Origin: Candidatus Lokiarchaeum ossiferum
GTDB taxonomy: Archaea > Asgardarchaeota > Lokiarchaeia > Sigyniarchaeales > Promethearchaeaceae
DNA length: 32,000 bases
Reading direction: 5' to 3'
Assembly (NCBI GenBank): GCA_025839675.1
Contig: CP104013.1
Coordinates: 30,001-62,000 of the forward strand
Both the position numbers and the translations under genes were made by a program. How positions within the stretch are numbered: position 1 is the first letter of the stretch; the number at the start of each line of letters is the position of its first letter. Below the pieces are notes generated by a model. The model searched no databases and had not been told where the DNA came from. It saw only the letters and a list, made by a program, of their open reading frames with translations. This document shows, piece by piece, positions 1,014 through 32,000 of this stretch.

Positions 1014-1147
1014 TTTTACCTTGATTTTGATGAATACACTCTTTCGTTTTAATATCTACGATAATTGAGAAAATTTGTTGAAAAGACTTTTTGAAATTAT
1101 TCTTAAAATTAAAAATTAAGTGTGAATTCTCATTTTTTCAGATACTG

Positions 1148-2779
1148 ATGGATCCAGATAAGAAACTCGAGCAAAAAAGATTAATGGGAATTCGTGGCAA
1201 ATTAATGCTTAATATTCTTTTTGCCAGCGTTATTCCGCTCCTTATTACAATTAGTTATATCATGCTATTTGGAAATATTGAAACTAGCACGCGTTATGAT
1301 ATTTTGTATTTATTTATCGGGATTACACTCGTGTCCATACCAATGGCATGGATCATCGGTCGAAGATATTCTGTTGATATCGTGAAACTTAAAGAAAACA
1401 TTATTCATGAAGAAGATTCAGATTATGTCCCTCACTCCATAGAAAGAAATGATGAAATTGGTGATTTATCTAATGAATTCCTTCGTCTTACTCACAATTT
1501 GCTCGAACAATCAACATTGATTGAAAAAATTGTAGATTCCAGCGCAGCCCCTCTTATTCAACTGAATTATGATTTTGAAATTGTTTTTGTTGGCGAAAGT
1601 TTCTTAAAATTGACTGGATATTCCATGGATTATTATTTAGGGAAAAAACCGACCATTTTATACGCCAACCTTGAAGATTCTAAACGGGTCTCAGAGGTGT
1701 TTTGGAAAGAAAAGCAAATTAAAAATATAAAATATGAACTTGCAAATAATTATTCAAAGAAAATCATTGTCGAAATGTCATCTATACCTTTAATTTCTGA
1801 AGATGGGCAAAATATGGGTTATTTGAATACATATTTCGATGTTACTCAACGAGAACGTGTTATGGACTTTGTGTCTGGGATGGCTTCAAATGTTACTGCC
1901 ATGGGGGGTAATATTGAAAACCAAACACAAAAAATTAATCTTCAAATGAAGGAATTGGCAGGGTCAACTGAGTCCGTCTCTGGTAGTATCAGTTCTCAAG
2001 TGAAATCCACCCGTGCCATTCAACAGTCGTTACAAAATCTCAAAACGATAAACCAGGATATTTTAATGCAAGCCAATTTACTTAAAGTTCAGTTAGGTCA
2101 AAGTGAACAAACTGCCGAAGTCAACTTCACTTTATCAAAATCAATTGTAGATCGCATTAACGGAATCTCCAATAGTGCGGAAAGTGTCAATGACATTATG
2201 CATAATTTGTCAGATAAAAGTCAAGAAATTAATAAAATAGTCGAAGTTATTAGTGGAATTGCAACTGAAACCAACTTGCTTGCACTAAATGCTGCCATTG
2301 AAGCGGCTCGTGCGGGAGATGCCGGGAAAGGATTTGCAGTGGTCGCAGATCAAGTACGAAAACTCGCTGAAGATTCGAAAAATGCTACCAATAGTATTTC
2401 AGATTTAATTGATTCCATTCAAAAAGAAATTCAAAACTCGGTAGTAGCCCAAAACACTACCGTTGAAGAAATTCAATCTAGCAAATCGGATTTCAATTCC
2501 AGCCAGGTAGAAATGGAAAAATTATTTAATATTGTGCAACTCGCTGATCAAAGTATTCGGAACGTTGTGAGTCAAATGGATTTTCAAGAAAGTGAGATTA
2601 AAGATATCAATGAAACTATTGAATTCATCAATTCTGAAGTTGAAATGGGTTCGATGGCCTTACAAGAAATAAATGACTCAAATGGAGATGTTTCAAGCAC
2701 AATTGATGCTTTAACAAATCAGACTCAACAATTAACCGGGGAACTACAACATTTACTCGCAGAAATAAATCATTTATAA
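1148..2779 (+). CDS. methyl-accepting chemotaxis protein (2 TM, HAMP-like, PAS-like, MCP signalling domain)
   Basis: The ORF is open from TTG 1091 and the first ATG is at 1148. Two N-terminal TM helices ([41 protein letters not shown]). HAMP-like [20 protein letters not shown]-like [28 protein letters not shown]. Canonical MCP hairpin-tip signature [37 protein letters not shown]. Confidence 0.9.
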
Positions 2780-5594: not shown

Positions 5595-7610
5595 TTACTG
5601 GATAATTTTTGAGATCAGTCTTGAAAGACTTGGTTCGTTATCCAATTTAAGGAAAAAATTATATTTCTCAGCCTTTTCAAATTTATTCCAGATTTCATCA
5701 TTAATTTGGATTTGTTCTGCAAATTTATCAATTTTTTTTTGGGCAGAATACGAATGTCCTTTATAAACATAAAAAATATGGATTGATTGTATCTTCTTTA
5801 TAACAATCATGTAGTTTCCAAATTTTGCTCGATCTAACCCTTCATCAAAAATATTTTTACTAAAGGTATTGAATGCGGAGAGAAAACTTCCGAATATTCC
5901 ATCAGAAATATTCCAATCATTCGTAAAAGATTTACTCATTAAGGGTAGACCGGTTTCTTGGGAAATAAGCAAAAATATTGGGACTTCATTACGAGAATTG
6001 ACGATCTTATTTTTAGATTTCCACATCATACTATTCAATTGATCTCTAATTTTTGCTAATCTCATACGTTCATCAATGGATATTTGATTTATATCCAAAG
6101 ATTCCCACACATCCCATTCTTTTAATAATTCATCATGTTCCATAGAAATTTTTTGCGCTATCTGCTCAATTTTGTGTGTCTGGGCATATTTTTGCGCTTC
6201 TATTAATAAAATCCTTGCTTTTTTAAGATCTAAATCTATTAATGCCATTTTTGATTCAAGTAACAATGTTTCGGCAAATAATCTTATTGAACTCTGGGTC
6301 TTTGCTGCATTCTTCAAAGTGTCAACAATTGCTTCAAGTTCATTTTCTACTTCAATATCTTGAGTTATATTTAATTCTGTTAGAAGAAGATCACATAAGT
6401 GAAGAAGTGCCCTTTCGGTTAATTCCCAAGGAATTTTTTTTTTTTCTAAAACACTTTTAAGAATATCTTCAGCTTCGATTCGAGAACGACTTCTCAAACT
6501 TGTTTTTAAGATGAGGGCTTTATCAATTTGTTTAATGAGTTTAAATATTTCTAATTTACTATTTCTACTTTCTATATTCTGTAATTCTTTAAAATAAATC
6601 TCTGCTTGTTTTATATGCCCAACTTCGAGAGACAAAATCAATAAACTATCCACGACTCCAAATAATAGAAATTCTTGGCTTACTTTCAGTTTTTTTGAAT
6701 CATTTAAGGCATTTATCAAATATTTTTCGGCTTTTAAAGGTTCACCATTTTGATGATACGCGTTCCCTATTGAATTGTTGCACCGAATAATTCCAATCAA
6801 ATTTTTATTATTCTCAGCAATTTTTAGCCCTTGTTTAAAATTTTCAATTGCAGAAGACATATCCCCCTTTGCAAGATAAATTGAACCCATCAACACTTTT
6901 CCTTCTCTATCTCTGGAGTCCGGTTCATACTTGTCTACTTTTTCAAGAATAAATTTTAGGCTTGTATCTAAATCGCCTTTTAGATAGTAATAAGTTGCCT
7001 TGTTATGTAGAGATGTTCTATACTCCCTTTGTATTCTAACAGAATTCTCCCTTTCTCTTAATTCGTCCAGTATTTGAGATGCTTGATTGAAAAATGTAAT
7101 CGACGTTTTTTTTTCTTCTGAATCTTCTCCAAATTTTTGTAAAAAATACCATCCTTTGAAATTTAAGATTTTAGCCCTTCTCAATTCAAGATTTTTTGTT
7201 AAATAACTCGATTTTTCATCAAAAACTCTTTCACAATATACAATTGTCTCCCAACTTTTAGTAAGTTCTCGCAGTTCAAATAATATTTTGGCTTTCATGA
7301 TTAAATAATCAAGAAATATTAGTTCCTCACTATTACGGGGTATATTTTTTATATTTATCTCAATAAGTTCAAGAGATTCATGAAGTTCGCCAATCTTAAA
7401 TAAAAAAACACTTTTGAAATAATTGAGTAGGATAGTTTCTAAATTATTACACACCATCTCAGATCTTATTGCATTAATATACTCTAAACCTTCTGAATAG
7501 ATTCCTTTTGATAGGTAATTCTCCAGTTGACCAATTTTCATATCAAAAATTTTATCCTGAGTAATGGTTTGCTTTATCATATATTTTCGATCTTCTATTA
7601 TTGAACCCAA
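5595..7610 (-). CDS. TPR-repeat protein with a C-terminal longin/roadblock-like alpha/beta domain
   Basis: 671-aa ORF (TTG 7610; alternative ATG 7580). There are many 34-aa TPR-like units (e.g. ATYYYLKGDLDTSLKFILEKV, MGSIYLAKGDMSSAIENFKQGLKIAE, IGNAYHQNGEPLKAEKYLINAL). The C-terminal ~130 aa (VPIFLLISQETGLPLMSKSF...DGIFGSFLSAFNTFS...FGNYMIVIKK...IFYVYKG) has the same pattern as the small protein at 30844-31302. Confidence 0.8.
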   Translation of the reverse strand: MGSIIEDRKYMIKQTITQDKIFDMKIGQLENYLSKGIYSEGLEYINAIRSEMVCNNLETILLNYFKSVFLFKIGELHESLELIEINIKNIPRNSEELIFLDYLIMKAKILFELRELTKSWETIVYCERVFDEKSSYLTKNLELRRAKILNFKGWYFLQKFGEDSEEKKTSITFFNQASQILDELRERENSVRIQREYRTSLHNKATYYYLKGDLDTSLKFILEKVDKYEPDSRDREGKVLMGSIYLAKGDMSSAIENFKQGLKIAENNKNLIGIIRCNNSIGNAYHQNGEPLKAEKYLINALNDSKKLKVSQEFLLFGVVDSLLILSLEVGHIKQAEIYFKELQNIESRNSKLEIFKLIKQIDKALILKTSLRSRSRIEAEDILKSVLEKKKIPWELTERALLHLCDLLLTELNITQDIEVENELEAIVDTLKNAAKTQSSIRLFAETLLLESKMALIDLDLKKARILLIEAQKYAQTHKIEQIAQKISMEHDELLKEWDVWESLDINQISIDERMRLAKIRDQLNSMMWKSKNKIVNSRNEVPIFLLISQETGLPLMSKSFTNDWNISDGIFGSFLSAFNTFSKNIFDEGLDRAKFGNYMIVIKKIQSIHIFYVYKGHSYSAQKKIDKFAEQIQINDEIWNKFEKAEKYNFFLKLDNEPSLSRLISKIIQ

Positions 7611-7822
7611 TTCATTAACAATTTTTATTAACTAAGTTATGATTTCGTGTTATTTTTAATACAATTTTAAAATATTGAACTATTATTTTAAAGATATTCC
7701 TTATTTTATGGAAATTTTGCTTGTTAACTGCCAATTTCAATATTTTTCAAGTCAGCAGGTAGTAGAAAATTTACATGTATGTATAAGAGTAATTTAGATA
7801 GGTAAAATACCTTAATAGAATT

Positions 7823-7896
7823 TTTTGTCGAGTATTTTTTACAATATTTTACATGGTAAAAAATCTGTAAAAAATCGTAAAAAAACATCGACAAAA
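7823..7896. repeat. 74-bp imperfect palindrome containing phased GTAAAAAA(T) direct repeats
   Basis: Outer inverted repeat TTTTGTCGA (7823-7831) / TCGACAAAA (7888-7896). Three GTAAAAAA(T/A) copies at 7856, 7867 and 7877 (10-11 bp phasing). Inverted copies ATTTTTTAC (7834-7842) and ATTTTAC (7846-7852). It lies inside a ~490-bp AT-rich intergenic region upstream of the TPR gene. Confidence 0.6.
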
Positions 7897-8099
7897 TATG
7901 ATTCCTCTTTTGATTCTCTCTCTGTTGAGAAAATGCTTAAGTCCAAAATAAATAGGACAAATCATAATTAGATTGACATAATTTTCAATAAATCAGGTAA
8001 AAGAATAAAGAAAAAAAAACGCTTAACATAAAAATTCCAACTTCACATCATCTAAAAAAATATTCAGCAAAAAGGACATTAAATGTAAACTTCATATTA

Positions 8100-8384
8100 T
8101 TAGGAAAACTCAGCCATTATTATATCAATTTGTGTTTTTCCTTCTAGTAAAGCTATGTTTTGGGTTGATTTCTGCAAATCTTTAGGCAGAAATTTGATCA
8201 ATTTTTGTTGGATTTGATGTTGTGTCAAAGATTTAAGTTGATTTAATTCAGTTGTTAGTAACTCCACTTGATGGGCAATAATATTAATCGGAATGTGATT
8301 TCGTAAGCAAAATGAAATAAACGCTTGTATCATGGGTTGCTTATCTAAAGTACTTGCATTAGCTGCGATGAAAGTAGCAGTCAT
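8100..8384 (-). CDS. hypothetical protein (94 aa)
   Basis: ATG-initiated ORF on the same strand as its neighbours. No motif recognised. Confidence 0.4.
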   Translation of the reverse strand: MTATFIAANASTLDKQPMIQAFISFCLRNHIPINIIAHQVELLTTELNQLKSLTQHQIQQKLIKFLPKDLQKSTQNIALLEGKTQIDIIMAEFS

Positions 8385-8455
8385 GGTTGATCACTTTTGT
8401 CTAAGTTGGATCCCATTTGTAGGAGAAGGGGTCATTGATTTTTTGGAATGTTTTG

Positions 8456-8469
8456 AAAAAAAAAAAAAA
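8456..8469 (-). terminator. oligo-T (T14 on the minus strand) tract downstream of gene 8495-8989
   Basis: A14 run on the plus strand, 25 nt beyond the stop codon of the minus-strand gene. Archaeal terminators are typically oligo-T tracts. Confidence 0.45.
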
Positions 8470-8494
8470 TGGAAAAATGGTTGAAGTAGAATTT

Positions 8495-8989
8495 TTAAAG
8501 TGCATAACCGCAATGACCGCAGTAGCTTCCCTGGGGCATAACCGGTGATCCACACATAGGGCAAAATTTTTTGAGATCGTCGTCGAAGTTTTGTTCTTCT
8601 CTTGCTTGCATAGGAGTCATTGTGGGTGCAAAGTTTTGCTGGGTTGGGTGTTGGTTAATTCGAGGTGATTCAAGGGGTTTGGATACCACATGAATGGTGA
8701 CTGGCGCTGAAGCATCCATTGATTTCTGGGTAACTTTTTCTCCTCTTTCCATATTTGAAGGTTGCTGTAAAGAATTATTTATTGTTATTTTCGGTTTTCG
8801 ACTGAGCAAATGTCCAATTATAGCAATGAAAGGAGAAAAAAGACATACCATTGACCAGAAAAAGGGATTCATGTTCCGTCGATAACTATCCCGGATAATC
8901 CACATGATAACAAACATGTCTATTAACAAGGTCCATAAAATTATCGAAGGGTTGACTAAGATATCGGTGTGTTGCAAATATGGGTGCAT
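8495..8989 (-). CDS. membrane protein with a PLDc_N-like N-terminal TM module and a C-terminal zinc ribbon
   Basis: N-terminal TM pair with WIIRDSYRRNMNPFFWSMVCLFSPFIAIIGHLLSRKP (the pattern of the short PLD-N-terminal membrane domain). The C-terminus is CPMCGSPVMPQGSYCGHCGYAL (CxxC-N9-CxxC). Confidence 0.75.
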   Translation of the reverse strand: MHPYLQHTDILVNPSIILWTLLIDMFVIMWIIRDSYRRNMNPFFWSMVCLFSPFIAIIGHLLSRKPKITINNSLQQPSNMERGEKVTQKSMDASAPVTIHVVSKPLESPRINQHPTQQNFAPTMTPMQAREEQNFDDDLKKFCPMCGSPVMPQGSYCGHCGYAL

Positions 8990-9699: not shown

Positions 9700-9974
9700 T
9701 TATCCTTTCTTTTAGTATTGCTGATAAGAATCTTTCTATACAAAGAAAAAATCCTCACCATATAAATTGATCTTAGATGCTTGTTTAAAATTAGCACCAA
9801 CTGATTCACACTTTGTTTCTCAACAGATTTATATAATTCATCTTCTTTTATACTTCCATTCGATATGAAAATGGATTTAAATTGAATCGAAAATTTGAAA
9901 AGTTGAACATTGAAGAATGCTTTCTCATACAAAATAAGCAGTGTAAGTACTACGTATGATACTTTAAATTCCAT
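9696..9974 (-). CDS. doubtful small ORF (92 aa)
   Basis: The stop overlaps the start of 9196-9699 (ATGA). Composition is low-complexity. Only 35 nt separate its start from the divergent gene at 10010. Confidence 0.25.
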   Translation of the reverse strand: MEFKVSYVVLTLLILYEKAFFNVQLFKFSIQFKSIFISNGSIKEDELYKSVEKQSVNQLVLILNKHLRSIYMVRIFSLYRKILISNTKRKDK

Positions 9975-10009
9975 AAATCTGTTATTGTCTTCATCGAAGG
10001 TAGTTAACT

Positions 10010-10765
10010 ATGCCAGATCTTCCCTTTGATTCTAAAATTGCTGTCGATTCCGTGACTGAATCCGATTCTAAGGATATCTTTATTCTCGAAAATTATGCCA
10101 AACGAACGGAAGTGACTCAAAGGGGAGGAGGGGGCATTGTTTCCGTGGTAATAATAGCGATCATGCTGTTGGCCTATTCATTTTTTGTGAATGAATTTCC
10201 AATCTTACGCACTATTTTAATTGTTTTTTTCTTGCTTCTTCTTGTTTACCTCATTATTGCCCGATTTACAAACATTATATCTGAGAGTATGCATTTTATT
10301 TTGAGTAAACAACTTTTTTCCCCCTTTCATTATATAATTTTGAAATACCGTTATCACGTTATTTCCCATAAAACTTTACGTCAAAAAACTTTTGCGCCAT
10401 ATAATGAGGTAAATCAGTCTTTCTTCATCCTCCTTTTGAAATATCTTGCGAATAATCCTTCTTATCTGCATCAATTGGGACCAAAAGTCCAGCAGTTAAT
10501 AATTCGTTGTAAGGAAAAAAACTATGACTTAAGTGCCTTAAATGATGTTTTTGATTATTATACCTACACGACTGAGGAACTCCTTAACCAATATTTGAAT
10601 CATCATCCAGTTTCAGCCAATCGTCGAGAACGCATCATTTATGAAGCGGATATGACCGATCGTCATTTGTTAGAGCGTGAATTACCCGTTAGTGATCCGT
10701 TACTCAAAGAAATTTATGATCATGATCACATTGGGCTCACAAACGGCTTTGGGATATTGAAATAA
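10010..10765 (+). CDS. uncharacterised membrane protein, tandem family copy 1 (2 TM plus a conserved ~150-aa C-terminal domain)
   Basis: 251 aa. Shares with copies 2 and 3 the N-terminal S(D/E)SKD motif, two TM helices, (K)(Q/R)(L/F)F(S/T)PFHY.IL(K/E)(K/Y)(K/R)YH, QLGP..QQLI, and ERI(V/I)(F/Y)EADMTDR(H/Q).LEREL...DPLL.EI. Confidence 0.8.
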   Translation: MPDLPFDSKIAVDSVTESDSKDIFILENYAKRTEVTQRGGGGIVSVVIIAIMLLAYSFFVNEFPILRTILIVFFLLLLVYLIIARFTNIISESMHFILSKQLFSPFHYIILKYRYHVISHKTLRQKTFAPYNEVNQSFFILLLKYLANNPSYLHQLGPKVQQLIIRCKEKNYDLSALNDVFDYYTYTTEELLNQYLNHHPVSANRRERIIYEADMTDRHLLERELPVSDPLLKEIYDHDHIGLTNGFGILK

Positions 10766-11047
10766 CAAATTAAATCTTCGAGTTCAAGAACTTGAGAACA
10801 GCGGAAAAAAATTTTCAAAAAATATCTACTGTTCCCGTTTATTCTGAGTTAGTCAAAAAGATAGTGGAAAATTTTAAAAAACTTATTGATTAAGTAATAA
10901 TAGGTTGGATGAGAAATTTTTCCCAAATATCATATAGAAACGGATTTATCTGATAATTCCCCTTCAGATTCTAAGGATGCTGCATTTATCGAAGACACAG
11001 AAAATAAAACCTCTCGGGGAAGTAGGTTTGGTTGTTTTGGATGGATT

Positions 11048-16042: not shown

Positions 16043-16173
16043 CTTAAAATTTTAATTGATTCTATTCTTCTTCTTGGAATTATTAATGTGAGAAGCTATT
16101 CAGACAGCAAATCATGGTAAATATTTATTAAAACGTAATCAAATATTTGTATAACAAGAAAAGGAAAATACAG

Positions 16174-17211
16174 ATGCTCCCCATTCACGAAAAATTAACA
16201 TGCCTCCTCTCAAATTTTTTTCAAGTCTCCAAACAAGCCTTAATTGCGGCGTATATTTTTGATCGGGATGGATTGCTGATTGCTAATCAAAGTCGGTTTG
16301 AACGGAATTCGCGAGAAGATTCGGAAATCTATGGGGCGATTGCCAGTGTCGTAGATCCAACTTTAAAACGAATCACCGCGGAATATCCGGGATCTTTTGG
16401 GACCGGAGGTTTTGAAACCGAGGATCACCACTTGATATTTACAGAAGCAGGACCAAAAGCAATTCTCCTATGCGTCTATGAATATCGGGTTATTATCAAT
16501 TATGAAATGCCCTATGTATTCTTGATTGCGGAGAAAATCGCAAAAATTCTTGAAGATCCAAAGGAAGATGTCGCACTCTCCGTGCCTAATCTCCATGTTG
16601 GAGAAAGCTTACCTCAGATAACACTTCCTCAATTAAACACACCCAATAAAGGTGGCGCTGCAGCTTTTGCAGATGAACAAAAACTCGTTTTCAAGTTGTG
16701 TGTTTTAGGAGATCCCGCTGTTGGAAAAACAAGTCTAATTCATCAATTCGTCACGAAGCGCTTTGAAACAGATTACAAACCTACATTAGGGATTTCCATT
16801 ACTAATCGTCGTTATAATTTGCAAGGTTTTGAGAATAAAGTTTTAGATTTTATGATATGGGATTTAGCAGGACAGAAATTTTTCCAACGGGTGCGGCAAT
16901 ATTATTATACAGGAGCCAATGCGGCGTTTATTATGTACGATATCTCTAGGCGCGAATCTTTTGAAGGGCGCATTAAATATTGGTATGATGATATCCGGAG
17001 AGCGATTCCCGATATTCCCATTGTTATCGTTGGCAATAAGCGAGATCTACTTGAGAAACGACAGGTAAAAGAAGAGGAAGGAGTAAATTTGGCAAAAGAA
17101 TTGAAATGTTCCTTCTTGGAAACCTCCGCAAAAAGTGGAGAAAATGTGAAGGATGCGTTTTCCTTGATGGGTATTGGGCTTTTTTTTAATTTTCGCTCCA
17201 TGGAAACATGA
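16174..17211 (+). CDS. Roadblock/LC7(MglB-like) domain fused to a Ras/Rab-like small GTPase
   Basis: The ORF is open from TTG 16147 and the first ATG is at 16174. The N-terminal ~130 aa fit the Roadblock pattern (ALIAAYIFDRDGLLIANQS...DSEIYGAIASVV...HHLIFTEAGPKAILLCV). After a Pro/Ala linker comes a complete G domain from ~16684: G1 GDPAVGKT, G2 PTLG, G3 WDLAGQ, G4 GNKRD, G5 ETSAK. There is no C-terminal CaaX. Confidence 0.9.
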   Translation: MLPIHEKLTCLLSNFFQVSKQALIAAYIFDRDGLLIANQSRFERNSREDSEIYGAIASVVDPTLKRITAEYPGSFGTGGFETEDHHLIFTEAGPKAILLCVYEYRVIINYEMPYVFLIAEKIAKILEDPKEDVALSVPNLHVGESLPQITLPQLNTPNKGGAAAFADEQKLVFKLCVLGDPAVGKTSLIHQFVTKRFETDYKPTLGISITNRRYNLQGFENKVLDFMIWDLAGQKFFQRVRQYYYTGANAAFIMYDISRRESFEGRIKYWYDDIRRAIPDIPIVIVGNKRDLLEKRQVKEEEGVNLAKELKCSFLETSAKSGENVKDAFSLMGIGLFFNFRSMET

Positions 17212-22541: not shown

Positions 22542-22759
22542 GTTTTGCTTTGGTTTTTTTTTGTTCTTCATTGTAAACTTTCTTATCAAGTTCATGCGGA
22601 GTAATTATGAACTATCTATCACCATGATCCAAAATTAATTTCCAAATGGTTGACCAAATTGGAAATCGGGGATCAAGATTTAGATTGGTAAGTCTGTGGG
22701 GGCAAATTTATAAATATTATAGAGTTATATTTCATAAATCCTATTTACTAAATATCGAT

Positions 22760-24334
22760 ATGAAAATCGTAGAGATTGAAAATGTAAAATTAGTCGAATC
22801 TGAAATAGATTTTATAAAAATTATGAATATCAAGTTATCTAATACTATTGAAAGAAGTTTGAAACTGAAAGATGAAGAAGTTAGTTATGGTGAAGTGGAA
22901 GATTTTCACATCAAATCTCTATTTCTCTATGGGGATTTTGAAGCTATTCATGAAAGTATTCAGAGTTTAGAGTTTTTAAAAAAACTAATTGTTAAAAAAC
23001 ACAATAATCAATCAAGAGGAATCTCAAAAATAATTTTACCCAATTCAATTGGAAACCTCTCACATTTAGAAATTCTTGTTCTCTCTGAATATATAGAATT
23101 ATTTTTGCCTGAAACTTTTAAAAATTTAAAAAATTTGAAAGAAATCACCTTAGCTACAGTAAATTTGCAAAATACAGATATGCTTAATAATATTAATTCT
23201 CCGAAGTTGGAATATTTCAATTTAGTTTCAGAAAATCTAACTTCAATTGAAAAACAATTTTTTAATCAAAATATTTATTTGAAAACTCTTTACTTAGAGT
23301 GTATTTCTATTGAAAATCTTTCAGAAGCCTTAGGTGATCTAAAAGAATTAGAATCTTTGACCATAAAAAAGGGAATATTCTTGAGAAATATCCCTGATGG
23401 CTTGTGTGAATTAAATAAACTTGTAAACTTAAAAATTGAGCAAACAGGATTGATAAAAATCCCAGAAAATATAGGTTTATTACATAATTTAAAAAAATTA
23501 AGTATAAGTTGGAACAGATTAAAAGCACTCCCACCAAGCATTTGTAAACTTTTTAATTTAGTTGAGCTTAAAGTAGATCATAATAACATAACTAAGTTGC
23601 CTGATGAAATTGGGGCGATTTCTTGTTTGGAAGAATTATTCCTTAATAATAACAAATTGCAGGAAATTCCGTCATCATTTGGAAATTTGCGAAAATTGAA
23701 AATAGTTGATTTTTCAAATAATGAACTTAACAATTTTCCTGAAATAAAATGCAATTTTCAATTTACTACAAAAATCAATTTATATAGAAATAAACTTACG
23801 AAGCTTCATCCTAGCATTGGAAAAATGGTTGGATTACAGGAACTCAATTTAAACAGTAATTTTATCCAATATTTACCTGATTCTATTGGAGATTTCCTGA
23901 AATTGGAGAAGTTTACTATCAATACTAATAAATTAAGTCAATTGCCTGATTCTATGAAGAAACTTAAAAATATGATGATTTTTGAAATTTCTTCTAATAA
24001 ACTTCAAGAAATACCCGATATTTTCGGACTATGGACAAAATTGAAAAATCTTGATTTAAGCAGAAATCAGATTTCCTCATTACCTGCGTCAATTTCAAAA
24101 TTAGAAAAACTACAAGAATTTTTTGTAGGATTCAACAAAATTGAGAATTTTCCATATGAGATAGAAAATCTACTAAGGATTGAAACGTTGGATTTAAGTA
24201 ATAATCAAATAGCTAATCTTTCAAAAAAAGTCAAAATTCCTAAATCCCTCACGTTTCTAAATATGTCAAAAAATCCTAAGGTTTTCAAGATGGATGATTT
24301 TATTACAAAAGATAAATTGGAAACATTATTCTAA
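22760..24334 (+). CDS. leucine-rich repeat protein (roughly 18 repeats of ~23 aa, LxxLxLxxNxLxxLPxxIgxL type)
   Basis: The ORF is open from ATG 22646. ATG 22760 (MKIVEIENV) is the more plausible start. Repeats include LKKLSISWNRLKALPPSICKLFN, LVELKVDHNNITKLPDEIGAISC and LEELFLNNNKLQEIPSSFGNLRK. No Roc/COR or other catalytic domain is present. Confidence 0.9.
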   Translation: MKIVEIENVKLVESEIDFIKIMNIKLSNTIERSLKLKDEEVSYGEVEDFHIKSLFLYGDFEAIHESIQSLEFLKKLIVKKHNNQSRGISKIILPNSIGNLSHLEILVLSEYIELFLPETFKNLKNLKEITLATVNLQNTDMLNNINSPKLEYFNLVSENLTSIEKQFFNQNIYLKTLYLECISIENLSEALGDLKELESLTIKKGIFLRNIPDGLCELNKLVNLKIEQTGLIKIPENIGLLHNLKKLSISWNRLKALPPSICKLFNLVELKVDHNNITKLPDEIGAISCLEELFLNNNKLQEIPSSFGNLRKLKIVDFSNNELNNFPEIKCNFQFTTKINLYRNKLTKLHPSIGKMVGLQELNLNSNFIQYLPDSIGDFLKLEKFTINTNKLSQLPDSMKKLKNMMIFEISSNKLQEIPDIFGLWTKLKNLDLSRNQISSLPASISKLEKLQEFFVGFNKIENFPYEIENLLRIETLDLSNNQIANLSKKVKIPKSLTFLNMSKNPKVFKMDDFITKDKLETLF

Positions 24335-29227: not shown

Positions 29228-30277
29228 CTAAACCAGTTTATCATCGAAATATAACTTAAAATCACAAACTTCATCGCCCTTTAGTACAGATTTGACGATA
29301 TCGCACTTAATAACCGGTTTTTGTAATATTTCTTCCCACAATTGAGCAGCCCATCCGGCAGCTCTATAGCAAAAAATGGGATCGATATCCGGAAGACTGG
29401 CCGCTTCAGAGACGAGTCGACAAAAGCAATAATGTTTCCGTTTTTCATCGTGATTGGTTGCTTTATCATACCCTTCCCGATCTCGTGCGACTTTACTGAT
29501 ATGAACATAATTCTCCTTGATTTCAGGTTCGATTATAAACTGAAGTTCGGTTTTAAGATGGTTGATTATATCCCGAACATCATGATTTTCGAGATATTTT
29601 TCCTTAAACTGGTTTATCTCCTCGATTGGGCGATCAAGGGCGATATGCGATAAAATTTGAAATTGTTCTTCTTTGGAACTTTCTTGCTTCAAGCGCTCGA
29701 GAGTTTTCTTAACCCACTGAATTCGGTCATTGATTTTGGTAAAGGGGGTGATTTTATCTCCATCTAAATAGATTTTTTCTTGCTTTTCGTGACCTAAGTA
29801 TTTATTTAACGCCCGTTTATACAAGTAGTTCCACATGTGGATCGACCCTTGTACTTCAATTTTTACCGTCTTAGGATTATCAAAATCGTAGTCGTGAAAG
29901 ATTTCCACAGTGGACATACCAGGGGAAATCCCATTTTTATACATAAGTCCGTAAACTTTTTGGTAGGCTTCTCCAATTTTATCCGGTTTGCCAGAATGAG
30001 TGTTAGAAAGGAATTCATTTCTCCCTAAAATTCTGGAAGAAATCCCCGCTTTCTCCACTTTTTCCGAAACGGGAAATCCAATTTCGGCATCAAAACCCTC
30101 CACAGGAGTATCATAGTGAAAGATAAGGGTTAATGGACCAACAATTCTTCCATGGCATTCTTCTTTTAGAATTTTCACCTGAGGCTCTAAATCCGCTCGT
30201 TTTTTTATCGGTTTTCGAATGCTTGCAAATAATGTTTCTTCCCGAATAACATGGGAGATATTATATGAATTTTCCAT
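29228..30277 (-). CDS. GyrI-like (effector-binding) domain protein with a Cys-containing C-terminal domain
   Basis: The N-terminal ~150 aa fit the GyrI-like two-repeat pattern (LFASIRKPI...GPLTLIFHYDTP...AEIGFPV; FLSNTHSGKPDKIGEAYQKVY...VEIFHDYD...IEVQ). The C-terminus has HYCFCRLV...FCYRAAGW...CDIVKSVLKGDEVCDFKL. Confidence 0.65.
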   Translation of the reverse strand: MENSYNISHVIREETLFASIRKPIKKRADLEPQVKILKEECHGRIVGPLTLIFHYDTPVEGFDAEIGFPVSEKVEKAGISSRILGRNEFLSNTHSGKPDKIGEAYQKVYGLMYKNGISPGMSTVEIFHDYDFDNPKTVKIEVQGSIHMWNYLYKRALNKYLGHEKQEKIYLDGDKITPFTKINDRIQWVKKTLERLKQESSKEEQFQILSHIALDRPIEEINQFKEKYLENHDVRDIINHLKTELQFIIEPEIKENYVHISKVARDREGYDKATNHDEKRKHYCFCRLVSEAASLPDIDPIFCYRAAGWAAQLWEEILQKPVIKCDIVKSVLKGDEVCDFKLYFDDKLV

Positions 30278-30843: not shown

Positions 30844-31302
30844 TTAAAAATATTTTTCCATTAGAAGGTCTTTGAAATAATCAAAAATAGAAAGATCCCC
30901 CACCCATGATCCAATAATTTGACCAAATTCAGTGTGAAACGTTTTTTGTATCTTTTGGAGCGTTTTCCGAACTGTTTTATCTCGGTTATTGATGTGAGTA
31001 CGCCCCACAAGAATAAATTCATTGGATTTTTCCAATTTTGGCATAATCATGATTTTGGAATCATGCATTTTTATCGCATTTAGGGAGTGGTTTGCTGTGA
31101 ATTCCATAGCTGTTATCATTCCAGAAAATAATGCGGGATCAACAGATTGCTTGTTAGGAAACGCGGGATTTTTTATATGGAGAAGCGGGGCTCCTGCATT
31201 ACTGATTATCCAGATTTCCATTAGTTTTGAAGTCATCCTATTCTCCGATCTTAATATAAAACGTAGCTTATTTAACTTTGTTTGGGTAAATAAAGATTCC
31301 AT
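30844..31302 (-). CDS. longin / AP-sigma-like (SNARE-like fold) small protein
   Basis: EIWIISNAGAPLLHIK...DPALFSGMITAMEFTANHS...SKIMIMPK...EFILVGRTH...LQKIQKTFHTEF. This is the same pattern as the C-terminus of 5595-7610. GGAG lies 6 nt before internal ATG 31236, so the start may be 31236. Confidence 0.65.
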   Translation of the reverse strand: MESLFTQTKLNKLRFILRSENRMTSKLMEIWIISNAGAPLLHIKNPAFPNKQSVDPALFSGMITAMEFTANHSLNAIKMHDSKIMIMPKLEKSNEFILVGRTHINNRDKTVRKTLQKIQKTFHTEFGQIIGSWVGDLSIFDYFKDLLMEKYF

Positions 31303-31331
31303 TTCATTAATAATTATTCTTCTCCAAGGCT

Positions 31332-32000
31332 CTATTTTATATCTTCAGTGCGTAATACCCCTAATCGGATTATTTCTGAATTTCTTAAAATCAGTTTCAA
31401 TTTGTCAGTAAATATTTCAATGATTTCTGATAATCGTTCTCGTTCACTCAGCGATTTTGTTAAATCAATCCCCACAGTAAAGTAAAACGAAAACTTTGCA
31501 CTTCCGACAGAAATATCAAATTTTGTTGTGTTAATCTGCAAACTTTCCGTAGTTTTCGCATAATTTCCCTGGAGACTTCCCTCTATATAGATCTTTTGGT
31601 ATATCTGAATTAAAGACTGATTGATTTTTTTTAACGCTTCGGGCGAAGCATAATAATTTCCTATTTCAAAATCATTAACAAATAAAATCCCGAAATTCAA
31701 TTGATTGTCCAGACAAAATGCTTTAATGGTGCGACACAAAGTTTCGTATAAATTGGGATTTCTTAATAACGGTTGAGCAAAACTGGAGATGATACTAAAG
31801 GGATTATAGATTGAAGTATGAAAAATACTTGGAGTGATATCCAAAGACTGGATTGTAGGCAAGGTACCTTGAATAAACTCTTGCTCATTTCGAATCAACC
31901 TTGATTTATCTTCGTATTTTGTATCATATTTGTGGAAAAAAAGGTAAATTTTTAAATTTGGATTGAACTGATAGGCAATTTCTAATGATTTTAAGAAATA
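31332..32000 (-). CDS. Gtr1/Rag-like small GTPase, 5'-partial (G4, G5 and the C-terminal roadblock-like domain are inside the window)
   Basis: The ORF track starts at TTG 31898, but the frame has no stop up to base 32000. My translation of 32000->31896 is YFLKSLEIAYQFNPNLKIYLFFHKYDTKYEDKSRL. It shows an HKxD-type G4 (FFHKYD), a FHTSIY G5-like motif ~35 aa later, and then a ~120-aa alpha/beta domain. Confidence 0.7.
   Translation of the reverse strand, partial: YFLKSLEIAYQFNPNLKIYLFFHKYDTKYEDKSRLIRNEQEFIQGTLPTIQSLDITPSIFHTSIYNPFSIISSFAQPLLRNPNLYETLCRTIKAFCLDNQLNFGILFVNDFEIGNYYASPEALKKINQSLIQIYQKIYIEGSLQGNYAKTTESLQINTTKFDISVGSAKFSFYFTVGIDLTKSLSERERLSEIIEIFTDKLKLILRNSEIIRLGVLRTEDIK

Follow-up and report, generated by a model that had tools for sequence, protein, structure and literature searches.

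A Rag/Gtr1-family GTPase gene and a stand-alone longin gene of Candidatus Lokiarchaeum ossiferum are adjacent only in closely related lineages

The Rag GTPases of eukaryotes (RagA/B-RagC/D and yeast Gtr1-Gtr2) are obligate heterodimers that Ragulator/EGO tethers to the lysosome and that signal to TORC1, and their actual regulators include the GAP longins FLCN-FNIP, NPRL2-NPRL3 and SMCR8-C9orf72. Archaea are not known to have TOR. A Rag-like small GTPase from Lokiarchaeota, LokiRagM, has been crystallised with GDP (PDB 8ZLA) and with GTP (9M28) in entries released in 2025-2026; it is monomeric by PDB title only, and the more distant 8YL2 is homotetrameric, also by PDB title. Our literature search found no publication behind 8ZLA, 9M28, 8YL2 or the names LokiRagM and LokiRagO. 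It is still hard to assign regulators to the small GTPases of Asgard archaea. Genome layout rarely helps, because the GTPase genes of strain MK-D1 generally do not share operons with genes for roadblock, longin or TRAPPC3 proteins (Tran et al. 2024, PMC10933270), and a 2025 survey raises the explicit question of which Asgard longins have Rag/Gtr or Arf-related GTPases as clients (PMC12290439).

The window analysed here is the whole 32,000-nucleotide stretch of the L. ossiferum genome, at the edge of which a sequence-only reading had placed a truncated Rag/Gtr1-like GTPase gene followed on the same strand by a longin-like gene, proposing the two as a candidate archaeal Rag-regulator module. Public records already carry annotations for both genes, and the ESPs reported as enriched in L. 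ossiferum include Gtr1/RagA GTPases and longins (PMC9834061). The coding features of the pair are as follows.

31332..32000, minus strand: C-terminal 222 codons and TAG stop of the 336-aa Rag/Gtr1-family GTPase NEF87_000054 (LokiRagM-type)
31923..31934, minus strand: G4 motif HKYD, residues 137-140 of full-length NEF87_000054, of the Rag type HKxD and not NKxD, by direct sequence reading
31809..31817, minus strand: G5 motif TSI, residues 176-178 of NEF87_000054, by direct sequence reading
31335..31757, minus strand: GTPase C-terminal domain, residues ~196-336, with roadblock strand order in an AF2 model of moderate confidence
31332-31334, minus strand: TAG stop codon of NEF87_000054
30844..31236, minus strand: 130-aa stand-alone longin-domain protein NEF87_000053, stop included

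The open reading frame listed at 31332-31898 (minus strand), which had been described as open to the window end, does continue in frame up to base 32000, reading YFLKSLEIAYQFNPNLKIYLFFHKYD...PSIFHTSIYNPFS..., and the residues quoted for it matched exactly. The 222-aa fragment was 100% identical to NEF87_000054 of L. ossiferum, and the window agreed with the public 35-kb contig L001 with 0 mismatches over 2850 bp, which allowed the N-terminal 114 aa beyond the window edge to be recovered from that contig. As anticipated, extension past base 32000 supplied the missing motifs: these 114 residues carry G1 (GLANAGKT) and G3 (DFGGQ), only G4 and G5 lying inside the window. GLANAGKT, DFGGQ, HKYD and TSI are all present in the full-length GTPase and were invariant in an alignment of 8 sequences (A7, GTPase homologues including LokiRagM), with H137, K138 and D140 of G4 and T176 and S177 of G5 the invariant residues of the latter two. 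The window fragment alone matched Pfam Gtr1_RagA (PF04670) at 28.1 bits, above the gathering cut-off of 22, and the same family was the best match of the full-length protein (91.5 bits, E 6.9e-26). In a PDB sequence search the full-length GTPase aligned with 8ZLA/9M28 at 294 bits over residues 19-335, followed by RagA, Gtr1 and RagC. The window-edge GTPase is a member of the Rag/Gtr1 family with the full set of G motifs G1-G5, in agreement with its original assignment.

The HKxD-type G4 and TSI-type G5 first noticed in the sequence were thus borne out by direct reading, and the C-terminal roadblock domain typical of the family is consistent with the AF2 model (overall pLDDT 64), in which the order from residue 196, helix-strand-strand-helix-strand-strand-strand-helix, is the roadblock order of Rag/Gtr C-terminal domains. 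Foldseek gave full-length alignments (~300 columns) of this model to 8ZLA, 8YL2, Gtr1, RagA and RagC, the top matches being the LokiRagM and LokiRagO entries and then full-length Gtr1, RagA and RagC. Like NEF87_000054, LokiRagM has a G domain and a C-terminal domain, shares 44% identity with it in alignment A7 and has its G1-G5 motifs in common with it, FFHK[YI]D and TSIY among them. It differs in that the PDB chain has 385 aa and not 336 aa, and that the closest relatives of the PDB sequence (L005, L006, P0129-P0153) bear a long acidic C-terminal tail which the window protein lacks; downstream of the Rag gene in these tailed clades lies a gene for 448-474 aa, and no longin. Eukaryotic Rag/Gtr proteins share the Gtr1_RagA match, the HKxD G4, the TSI G5, the roadblock-order C-terminal domain and a full-length structural alignment (Foldseek E 1e-16 to 1e-12), whereas structure-based identity was only ~17-23% and TM-scores ~0.45 on this moderate-quality GTPase model. 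From its family membership, the P-loop G domain would be expected to cycle between GTP and GDP states, with the roadblock-like C-terminal domain a probable docking surface. By analogy with the crystallised 44%-identical homologue, the GTPase is probably a monomer, unlike the obligate heterodimers of eukaryotes; since that closest characterised homologue is described as monomeric (8ZLA title), the eukaryotic heterodimer logic may not carry over.

For the downstream gene, the mechanically called frame at 30844-31302 (minus strand) encodes 152 aa from an ATG at 31302, which is not conserved, and translation from the start that is conserved, an internal ATG at 31236, gives 130 aa; the product is most likely 130 aa. 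Direct searches of Pfam, NCBIfam and PDB sequences with the 152-aa protein returned nothing, with no Pfam match at E ≤ 1. An AF2 model of NEF87_000053 built from an 88-sequence alignment (pLDDT 89.3, pTM 0.84) shows the elements E5-12, E17-22, H34-47, E54-56, E60-64, E74-81, H86-108 and H115-129, that is, the canonical longin topology strand-strand-helix-strand-strand-strand-helix-helix. Foldseek matched this model to Mon1-Ccz1, LAMTOR, TRAPPC1, AP sigma and MglB, the top match being 5ldd (Mon1-Ccz1-Ypt7), at modest values (E about 1e-4, TM 0.5-0.66). On the strength of the model, the downstream protein has a longin fold, and the description of it as longin-like stands. The HMM searches that had been proposed gave a split outcome: Gtr1_RagA scored above its cut-off, and the longin protein itself drew no Pfam match, although 29 of its 88 family members matched Fuz_longin_1 (PF19036; best E 1.8e-8) and 7 of the 88 Intu_longin_1. 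The family profile found MON1 longin domain 1 (E 1e-3) and Bet5 (E 1.5e-3) in the PDB, and UniRef names the small protein an FUZ/MON1/HPS1 first longin domain protein. Judged by sequence, the longin is related to MON1/FUZ longin domain 1 and TRAPP Bet5, not to the FLCN/NPRL2 GAP type.

NEF87_000053 shares the longin topology with the MON1/FUZ/HPS1 first longin domain (PF19036) and with TRAPP Bet5/TRAPPC1, and differs from MON1/FUZ/HPS1 in being a single stand-alone domain rather than a tri-longin, with no partner longin encoded nearby. It is a 130-aa single-domain member of a family found mostly in Promethearchaeota, of which 119 representatives were collected. Longin domains of the MON1/FUZ/Bet5 kind usually dimerise, and the dimer offers a small GTPase a binding platform that in most cases acts in a GEF-like way. 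From its family membership, the most likely activity of NEF87_000053 would be that of a GEF-like platform for some client GTPase. A FLCN/NPRL2-type GAP longin, the kind of partner implied by the eukaryotic parallel, was rejected by the motif test: the GAP longins and the Asgard GP-motif longins, for which the motif has been defined (PMC12290439), share the fold of NEF87_000053 but not its sequence at this position, where G15-A16-P17 stands in place of GP. Among the 88 family members, GP before strand 2 occurs in 1 and GxP in 40, and no arginine is universally conserved: at R79, the only arginine-finger candidate, 45 members have Arg and 16 have Lys. Pfam and PDB sequence searches of the longin family gave no matches to Folliculin, NPR2 or SMCR8.

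The GTPase and longin genes were adjacent only in three closely related lineages (L001/L002, L020/L021 and L022, with Rag identities of 100, 87 and 73%). In L001 and L020, the longest adjacent loci, collinearity extends to the flanking acyltransferase, PNPOx and 349-aa genes, and the acyltransferase and the start of PNPOx are visible beside the pair on the short contig L022. None of 10 more distant Rag-homologue loci (L003-L006, L024-L029; 43-51% identity) has an adjacent longin, and 8 longin-homologue loci (L013-L019, L023; 38-52% identity) show no Rag-like gene in the available flanks, some of which are <1 kb; the metagenome scan for longin homologues used an 8-sequence alignment. Positional homologues keep one gene without the other: L004 retains the upstream GH38 and 164-aa genes and the Rag gene without the longin, and L023 retains a JAMM-like gene (90% identical) and the longin without the Rag gene, a tblastn search of its 765-bp gap finding no Rag remnant. 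In the LokiRagM family, for which at least 112 proteins were collected, the conserved downstream gene differs from clade to clade. In L029 a gene for 148 aa precedes the Rag homologue; it was considered as a longin and rejected, as it is not a member of the longin family. Conservation of the pair across Asgard genomes, one of the tests on which the proposed module had been staked, thus failed beyond close relatives: because the genes are neighbours only there, a conserved Rag-regulator module is not supported. The MglA-MglB pair resembles this locus in having a small GTPase gene followed by a small gene of the roadblock/longin superfold, but MglB has roadblock and not longin topology and MglA lacks a C-terminal roadblock domain. 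The MglA-MglB pairing is widely conserved, whereas the Rag-longin adjacency is seen only at Rag identities of at least 73%.

The two genes are separated by a short intergenic region with the following features.

31237..31331, minus strand: 95-nt spacer from the Rag stop codon to the conserved longin start
31269-31279: block AAAGTTAAATA, conserved in all three close relatives
31253-31261: block TTTTATATT, with an invariant core TTTTAT, conserved in all three close relatives
31243-31246: Shine-Dalgarno-like GGAG, conserved in all three close relatives

We infer that these blocks would be promoter and ribosome-binding elements, and the AT-rich and GGAG blocks together suggest a separate promoter for the longin gene, which probably has its own. 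A sigma-70 promoter and intrinsic-terminator scan, which is uninformative for an archaeon, found no minus-strand site in the gene pair, and comparison of the region upstream of the L023 longin with the spacer gave no convincing conservation, a result neutral for the promoter reading.

These findings make it probable that the genes are independent neighbours, two separate Asgard 'eukaryotic signature' genes in tandem, the longin probably with its own promoter. Their adjacency would then reflect synteny at the genus level, the two genes belonging to families that are both heavily expanded, rather than a conserved co-functional module. An orthogroup table of L. ossiferum and P. syntrophicum mentions 'Gtr1' 21 times and 'longin' 50 times; as both families are large in the L. 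ossiferum genome, chance adjacency is plausible, and a rough estimate from these counts is ~0.4 expected chance Rag-longin adjacencies per genome. What speaks against independence is that the genes lie in tandem on the same strand, 95 nt apart, and have been kept so in three lineages down to 73% Rag identity.

The longin could alternatively serve in a different module, which we regard as possible but doubtful: it would pair with another longin into a heterodimer, as in Mon1-Ccz1 or the TRAPP core, and act on a non-Rag GTPase, with its L. ossiferum partners encoded elsewhere. Longin homologues at 38-48% identity have as their conserved same-strand neighbour a 151-156-aa protein at six loci (L013-L015, L017-L019), four of which (L013, L015, L017, L019) also have, on a divergent transcript, a longin-family paralogue of 182-195 aa (profile E 1e-9 to 1e-14). 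In L013 and L015 a Ras/Arf-like GTPase of 207 aa is encoded ~2 kb downstream. In sequence the longin is closest to MON1 longin domain 1 and Bet5, whose role is that of heterodimeric GEF cores. However, no homologue of the 152-aa or 195-aa partner was found in the 32-kb window or 10 kb beyond, and the metagenomic loci may be either orthologues or paralogues of the window longin gene.

Rather unlikely is a functional minimal Rag-regulator module, in which the longin would bind the GTPase encoded beside it and set that GTPase's nucleotide state as a GEF or GAP, or would replace the second Rag subunit through roadblock pairing. The same-strand tandem arrangement conserved in three lineages is consistent with it, as is the monomeric state of the crystallised homologue (PDB title), which would leave the roadblock domain free to pair. 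A same-family longin also lies 3.2 kb upstream of a LokiRagM-type gene on the same strand in L005, a distant MAG; this loose linkage, which by rough estimate would arise by chance in ~5% of cases over the loci examined, likewise speaks against independence. Rag-like GTPase-longin/roadblock fusions exist in Lokiarchaeia (PMC10933270; orthogroup 721 in the orthogroup table), which makes Rag-longin contacts biologically plausible, and longin and roadblock proteins are classically the ones that regulate GTPases of the Rag, Rab and MglA kinds (PMC3747258). Set against this reading are the adjacency missing at 10 of 10 distant Rag-homologue and 8 of 8 longin-homologue loci, the positional homologues L004 and L023, the different conserved downstream genes of other GTPase-family clades, the promoter-like blocks in the spacer, the chance expectation given above, and a longin that lacks the GP motif of Rag-GAP longins and whose Arg79 is present in just 45 of 88 family members. 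Any functional coupling of the pair is putative and not conserved; of the proposed Rag-regulator module, the gene identities hold and the conserved adjacency does not.

A more specific and still less probable version is that, in the Lokiarchaeum lineage, a monomeric Rag-like GTPase recruited the downstream stand-alone MON1-type longin as a dedicated partner, either for roadblock docking, mimicking a second Rag subunit or a Ragulator contact, or as an exchange factor; if true, this would be a two-gene prokaryotic prototype of Rag regulation that could be reconstituted from a cultured Asgard archaeon. It is very improbable that the GTPase is Arf-like or SR-beta-like rather than a Rag: the Arf (52.8 bits), SRPRB, Roc and Ras models pass their own Pfam thresholds for the full-length protein, many database names read 'ADP-ribosylation factor-like protein' and NCBI calls most MAG homologues Arf-like, but the Arf score falls ~39 bits below Gtr1_RagA, RagA, Gtr1 and RagC outrank every Arf/Arl chain in the PDB sequence search after the Asgard entries, the HKxD G4 and the extra roadblock-like C-terminal domain are Rag features not found in Arf or SR-beta, and Foldseek alignments to Arf/Arl extend over ~180 columns as opposed to ~300 to full-length Rag/Gtr chains.

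Had the Rag-longin pair been conserved, it would have offered one of the few clues to which regulators belong to which GTPases. The pair, considered here as probably independent neighbours, is present in a cultured organism and restricted to a single genus-level clade. It is therefore an inexpensive choice for pull-down work and does not testify to an ancestral module, and the differing downstream neighbours of the LokiRagM-family clades may be better leads for partners.

The minus-strand frame of the ORF at 31332-31898 was open as far as base 32000 and read YFLKSLEIAYQFNPNLKIYLFFHKYD...PSIFHTSIYNPFS...TEDIK (stop), as quoted in the sequence-only reading. This edge ORF matched the last 222 residues of NEF87_000054, a 336-aa protein of Candidatus Lokiarchaeum ossiferum, at 100% identity. 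A 152-aa ORF followed it on the same strand, and after this came a PNPOx-like gene and then a 349-aa gene. The 152-aa protein was encoded on L001, a 35-kb public contig with 0 mismatches to the window in a 2850-bp overlap, which runs on beyond window base 32000 and from which the G1 and G3 motifs were recovered. The edge-ORF observation is real, archaeal and fully recoverable; G+C content of the window was ~32%.

Beyond the window edge, minus strand: G1 GLANAGKT and G3 DFGGQ, invariant across eight homologues
31923-31934, minus strand: G4 HKYD, invariant across eight homologues
31809-31817, minus strand: G5 TSI, invariant across eight homologues
30844-31302, minus strand: second mechanically called ORF, 152 aa, after the Rag ORF

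Assignment of the edge ORF to the Rag/Gtr1 family was correct. The window fragment alone scored 28.1 bits against Pfam Gtr1_RagA, above the gathering threshold of 22, and the full-length protein reached 91.5 bits (E 6.9e-26), with Arf (52.8) as runner-up, followed by Roc, MMR_HSR1, SRPRB and Ras. PDB sequence searches agreed, placing two sequences named 'GTP-binding protein' on top, 8zla/9m28 (294 bits, residues 19-335) and 8yl2 (118 bits), then human RagA, yeast and S. pombe Gtr1 and RagC/Gtr2, with Arl/Arf chains below these. The HKxD-type G4 and TSI-type G5 noticed beforehand were present, and the expected C-terminal roadblock domain appeared in an AF2 model that was only moderate (5-sequence alignment, pLDDT 64): from residue 196 it ran helix-strand-strand-helix-strand-strand-strand-helix, the roadblock order known from Rag C-terminal domains. 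Foldseek with this model returned 8ZLA, 9M28 and 8YL2, then full-length Gtr1, RagA and RagC chains, over ~300 aligned columns. 8ZLA is titled 'monomeric Rag-like small GTPase from Asgard Lokiarchaeota (LokiRagM) in complex with GDP', 9M28 is LokiRagM with GTP, and 8YL2 is titled 'homo tetrameric RagA-like small GTPase (LokiRagO)'; these entries were released from 2025-09 to 2026-03, and we found no paper describing 8ZLA, 9M28 or 8YL2. LokiRagM is 44% identical to the window protein, and since a LokiRagM-type protein has already been crystallised, the kind is already known.

Homologues of the downstream protein are 130 aa long (137 in one) and start at an internal Met (MTSKLME...). In a relative with a 73%-identical Rag protein, the upstream ATG was missing and the upstream stretch contained frame-breaking indels and stop triplets; we therefore placed the longin coding start at window 31236, which gives a 95-nt spacer behind the Rag stop codon. 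The protein itself had no match in Pfam, NCBIfam or PDB sequence searches, and UniRef already names it 'FUZ/MON1/HPS1 first Longin domain-containing'. At E <= 1e-3, 119 relatives turned up among 1.84 billion representative proteins in a profile search, almost all of them 120-150 aa long. Among 88 aligned family members, 29 matched Pfam Fuz_longin_1 (best E 1.8e-8), the first longin domain of FUZ/MON1/HPS1, and 7 matched Intu_longin_1, with Sybindin, Longin, SRX, Profilin or Robl_LC7 matched by single members. Against PDB, the family profile aligned to MON1 longin domain 1 (E 1e-3) and Bet5. A confident AF2 model (88-member alignment, pLDDT 89.3, pTM 0.84) bore out the longin-like fold proposed from the sequence, with the canonical longin order strand-strand-helix-strand-strand-strand-helix-helix, and its Foldseek matches (E ~1e-4, TM 0.5-0.66) were Mon1-Ccz1-Ypt7, LAMTOR subunits, TRAPPC1, AP sigma subunits, an MK-D1 roadblock protein and MglB.

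The protein had further been likened to the FLCN/FNIP and Nprl2/3 longins, a comparison that we rejected on the GP motif. A 2025 survey (PMC12290439) defines GAP longins and a similar Asgard class by two features, a GP dipeptide preceding strand 2 and an arginine finger. The window longin has G-A-P at this position; GP occurred in 1/88 family members and GxP in 40/88, and R79, the sole semi-conserved arginine, was present in 45/88. The downstream protein is a longin of the MON1/TRAPP kind, not of the Rag-GAP kind.

The Rag and longin genes stand close together in tandem, a layout that favours functional coupling, which we nevertheless consider improbable. Their order was kept in three lineages, L. 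ossiferum (L001/L002), L020/L021 (Rag 87% identical) and L022 (Rag 73%). A JAMM-like 152-aa gene, an acyltransferase, PNPOx and the 349-aa gene were also collinear in the longest pair loci, L001 and L020, and the short L022 contig showed the acyltransferase and the beginning of PNPOx; conservation of the pair is therefore no more informative than general synteny. All three close relatives shared blocks in the 95-nt spacer, AAAGTTAAATA, TTTTAT, and GGAG immediately before the ATG, which would be the promoter and ribosome-binding site of the longin gene and, if so, argue against coupling. The 349-aa gene (29228-30277, minus strand), two genes downstream of longin, was collinear with the pair in L020 and L021; its Pfam matches were all sub-threshold, namely GyrI-like, DUF6144, ATC_hydrolase and, very weakly (E 0.15), V4R, a superfamily tied to TRAPPC3 in Asgard archaea.

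Conservation of the pair across Asgard genomes did not hold beyond these close lineages. When the longin-family profile was run against all ORFs within 4-6 kb each side, as far as each contig reached, no adjacent longin was found in ten Rag-homologue loci at 43-51% identity (L003-L006, L024-L029), and the available flanks (some short) of eight longin-homologue loci at 38-52% identity (L013-L019, L023) held no Rag-like gene. Both results argue against coupling, as do L004, which keeps Rag without longin, and L023, which keeps longin without Rag. L004, a positional homologue, retained Rag together with the upstream GH38 gene and a 164-aa gene (61% identical), and a convergent amidohydrolase gene came directly after Rag. 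At L023 583-2195, a JAMM/MPN-like gene of 152 aa shared 90% identity with the one upstream of the pair in L. ossiferum (L001 7122-7580); a 765-bp gap and longin (52%) followed. The acyltransferase and Rag genes were missing from this gap, so close relatives differ by an insertion or deletion of this block. L004 (1-5011; GH38 mannosidase, Rag 43% identical), from the same sequencing sample, lacks the intervening genes and longin, and may represent either another organism or a paralogous region.

A longin-family member was found near the Rag homologue in 1/10 distant loci, L005, where it lay 3.2 kb upstream on the same strand with three opposite-strand genes between:

L005 2288-2752, plus strand: P0015, longin of the window family, partly masked by N, from a distant MAG
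L005 5953-7266, plus strand: LokiRagM-type gene, downstream of P0015

Chance alone would seldom produce this linkage (~5% across the loci covered, by a rough estimate), and it speaks for coupling. It was the sole Rag-longin linkage seen outside the Lokiarchaeum clade; the intervening genes encode two M42 peptidases and one methyltransferase.

Coupling is also favoured by Rag-like GTPase-longin/roadblock fusions in Lokiarchaeia, as given in PMC10933270 and under orthogroup 721 of the PMC9834061 table, and, by analogy with LokiRagM, monomeric according to its PDB title, the roadblock domain might be available for pairing. PMC9834061 names Gtr1/RagA GTPases and longin domains among the enriched ESPs of L. 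ossiferum, with at least 21 'Gtr1' and at least 50 'longin' mentions in the orthogroup table. Both families are large in this organism. From these mentions and a gene count that we take to be roughly 5000, ~0.4 adjacent Rag-longin pairs are expected by chance, which weighs against coupling.

Another small GTPase in the same 32-kb window (354 aa, 16147-17211, plus strand), ~14 kb from the Rag-like gene, is a roadblock-GTPase fusion like those described for MK-D1: its C-terminal part is a Ras/Rab-type G domain (161 bits to Pfam Ras), and its N-terminal region weakly matches Roadblock/LC7 (20.2 bits, below the cut-off of 23). Elsewhere in the window are a PAS and MCP-signal chemoreceptor-like protein (562 aa; 1091-2779, plus strand) and a 562-aa leucine-rich-repeat protein (22646-24334, plus strand).

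Clades of the GTPase family differed in the downstream genes kept:

L027 4338-5762 and L028 7227-8651, Rag strand: 474-aa gene, Pfam IFT52_GIFT, 70% identical between loci
L005 7266-8684, L006 ~7301-8692 and L029 7312-8658, Rag strand: 448-472-aa gene, no Pfam match, 43-45% identical between loci

The LokiRagM-type genes of these five loci encode an acidic C-terminal tail, and the downstream gene of L005 overlaps the Rag stop codon. Homologues at L003, L024 and L025 had a DtxR/ZnuA/PEPCK context: these tail-less proteins (47-51% identity) adjoin a DtxR-type iron-dependent repressor, with a ZnuA/ABC-3 metal transporter operon in L003 and L024 and a PEPCK gene in L024 and L025. Rag-like/Arf-like homologues also turned up on contigs that had been assigned to bacterial MAGs (Candidatus Deferrimicrobium sp. 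and Desulfobacterales; L011, P0206), with two copies on L011 (5722-6930, plus strand; 9811-11007, minus strand); either mis-binning or horizontal transfer could account for them. Longin homologues at 38-48% identity had a same-strand 151-156-aa gene of no assigned function directly upstream in six loci (L013, L014, L015, L017, L018, L019; cluster e.g. L013 3668-5387), and four of the six (L013, L015, L017, L019) carried a divergently transcribed longin paralogue of 182-195 aa from the same family. The L013-type cluster may be a longin-longin (Mon1-Ccz1-like) module; L013 and L015 also have a 207-aa Ras/Arf-like GTPase ~2 kb downstream.

These results indicated that both gene identifications are correct and that the proposed Rag-regulator module, of which the gene identities and tandem layout stood, is a lineage-restricted juxtaposition, its pairing confined to one clade. 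Both genes are of already known kinds, being annotated, with a Rag homologue crystallised. Judging from family membership, the Rag protein would most likely switch between GTP and GDP states and carry a roadblock domain for docking, and the longin would most likely dimerise into a GTPase-binding, probably GEF-like, platform.
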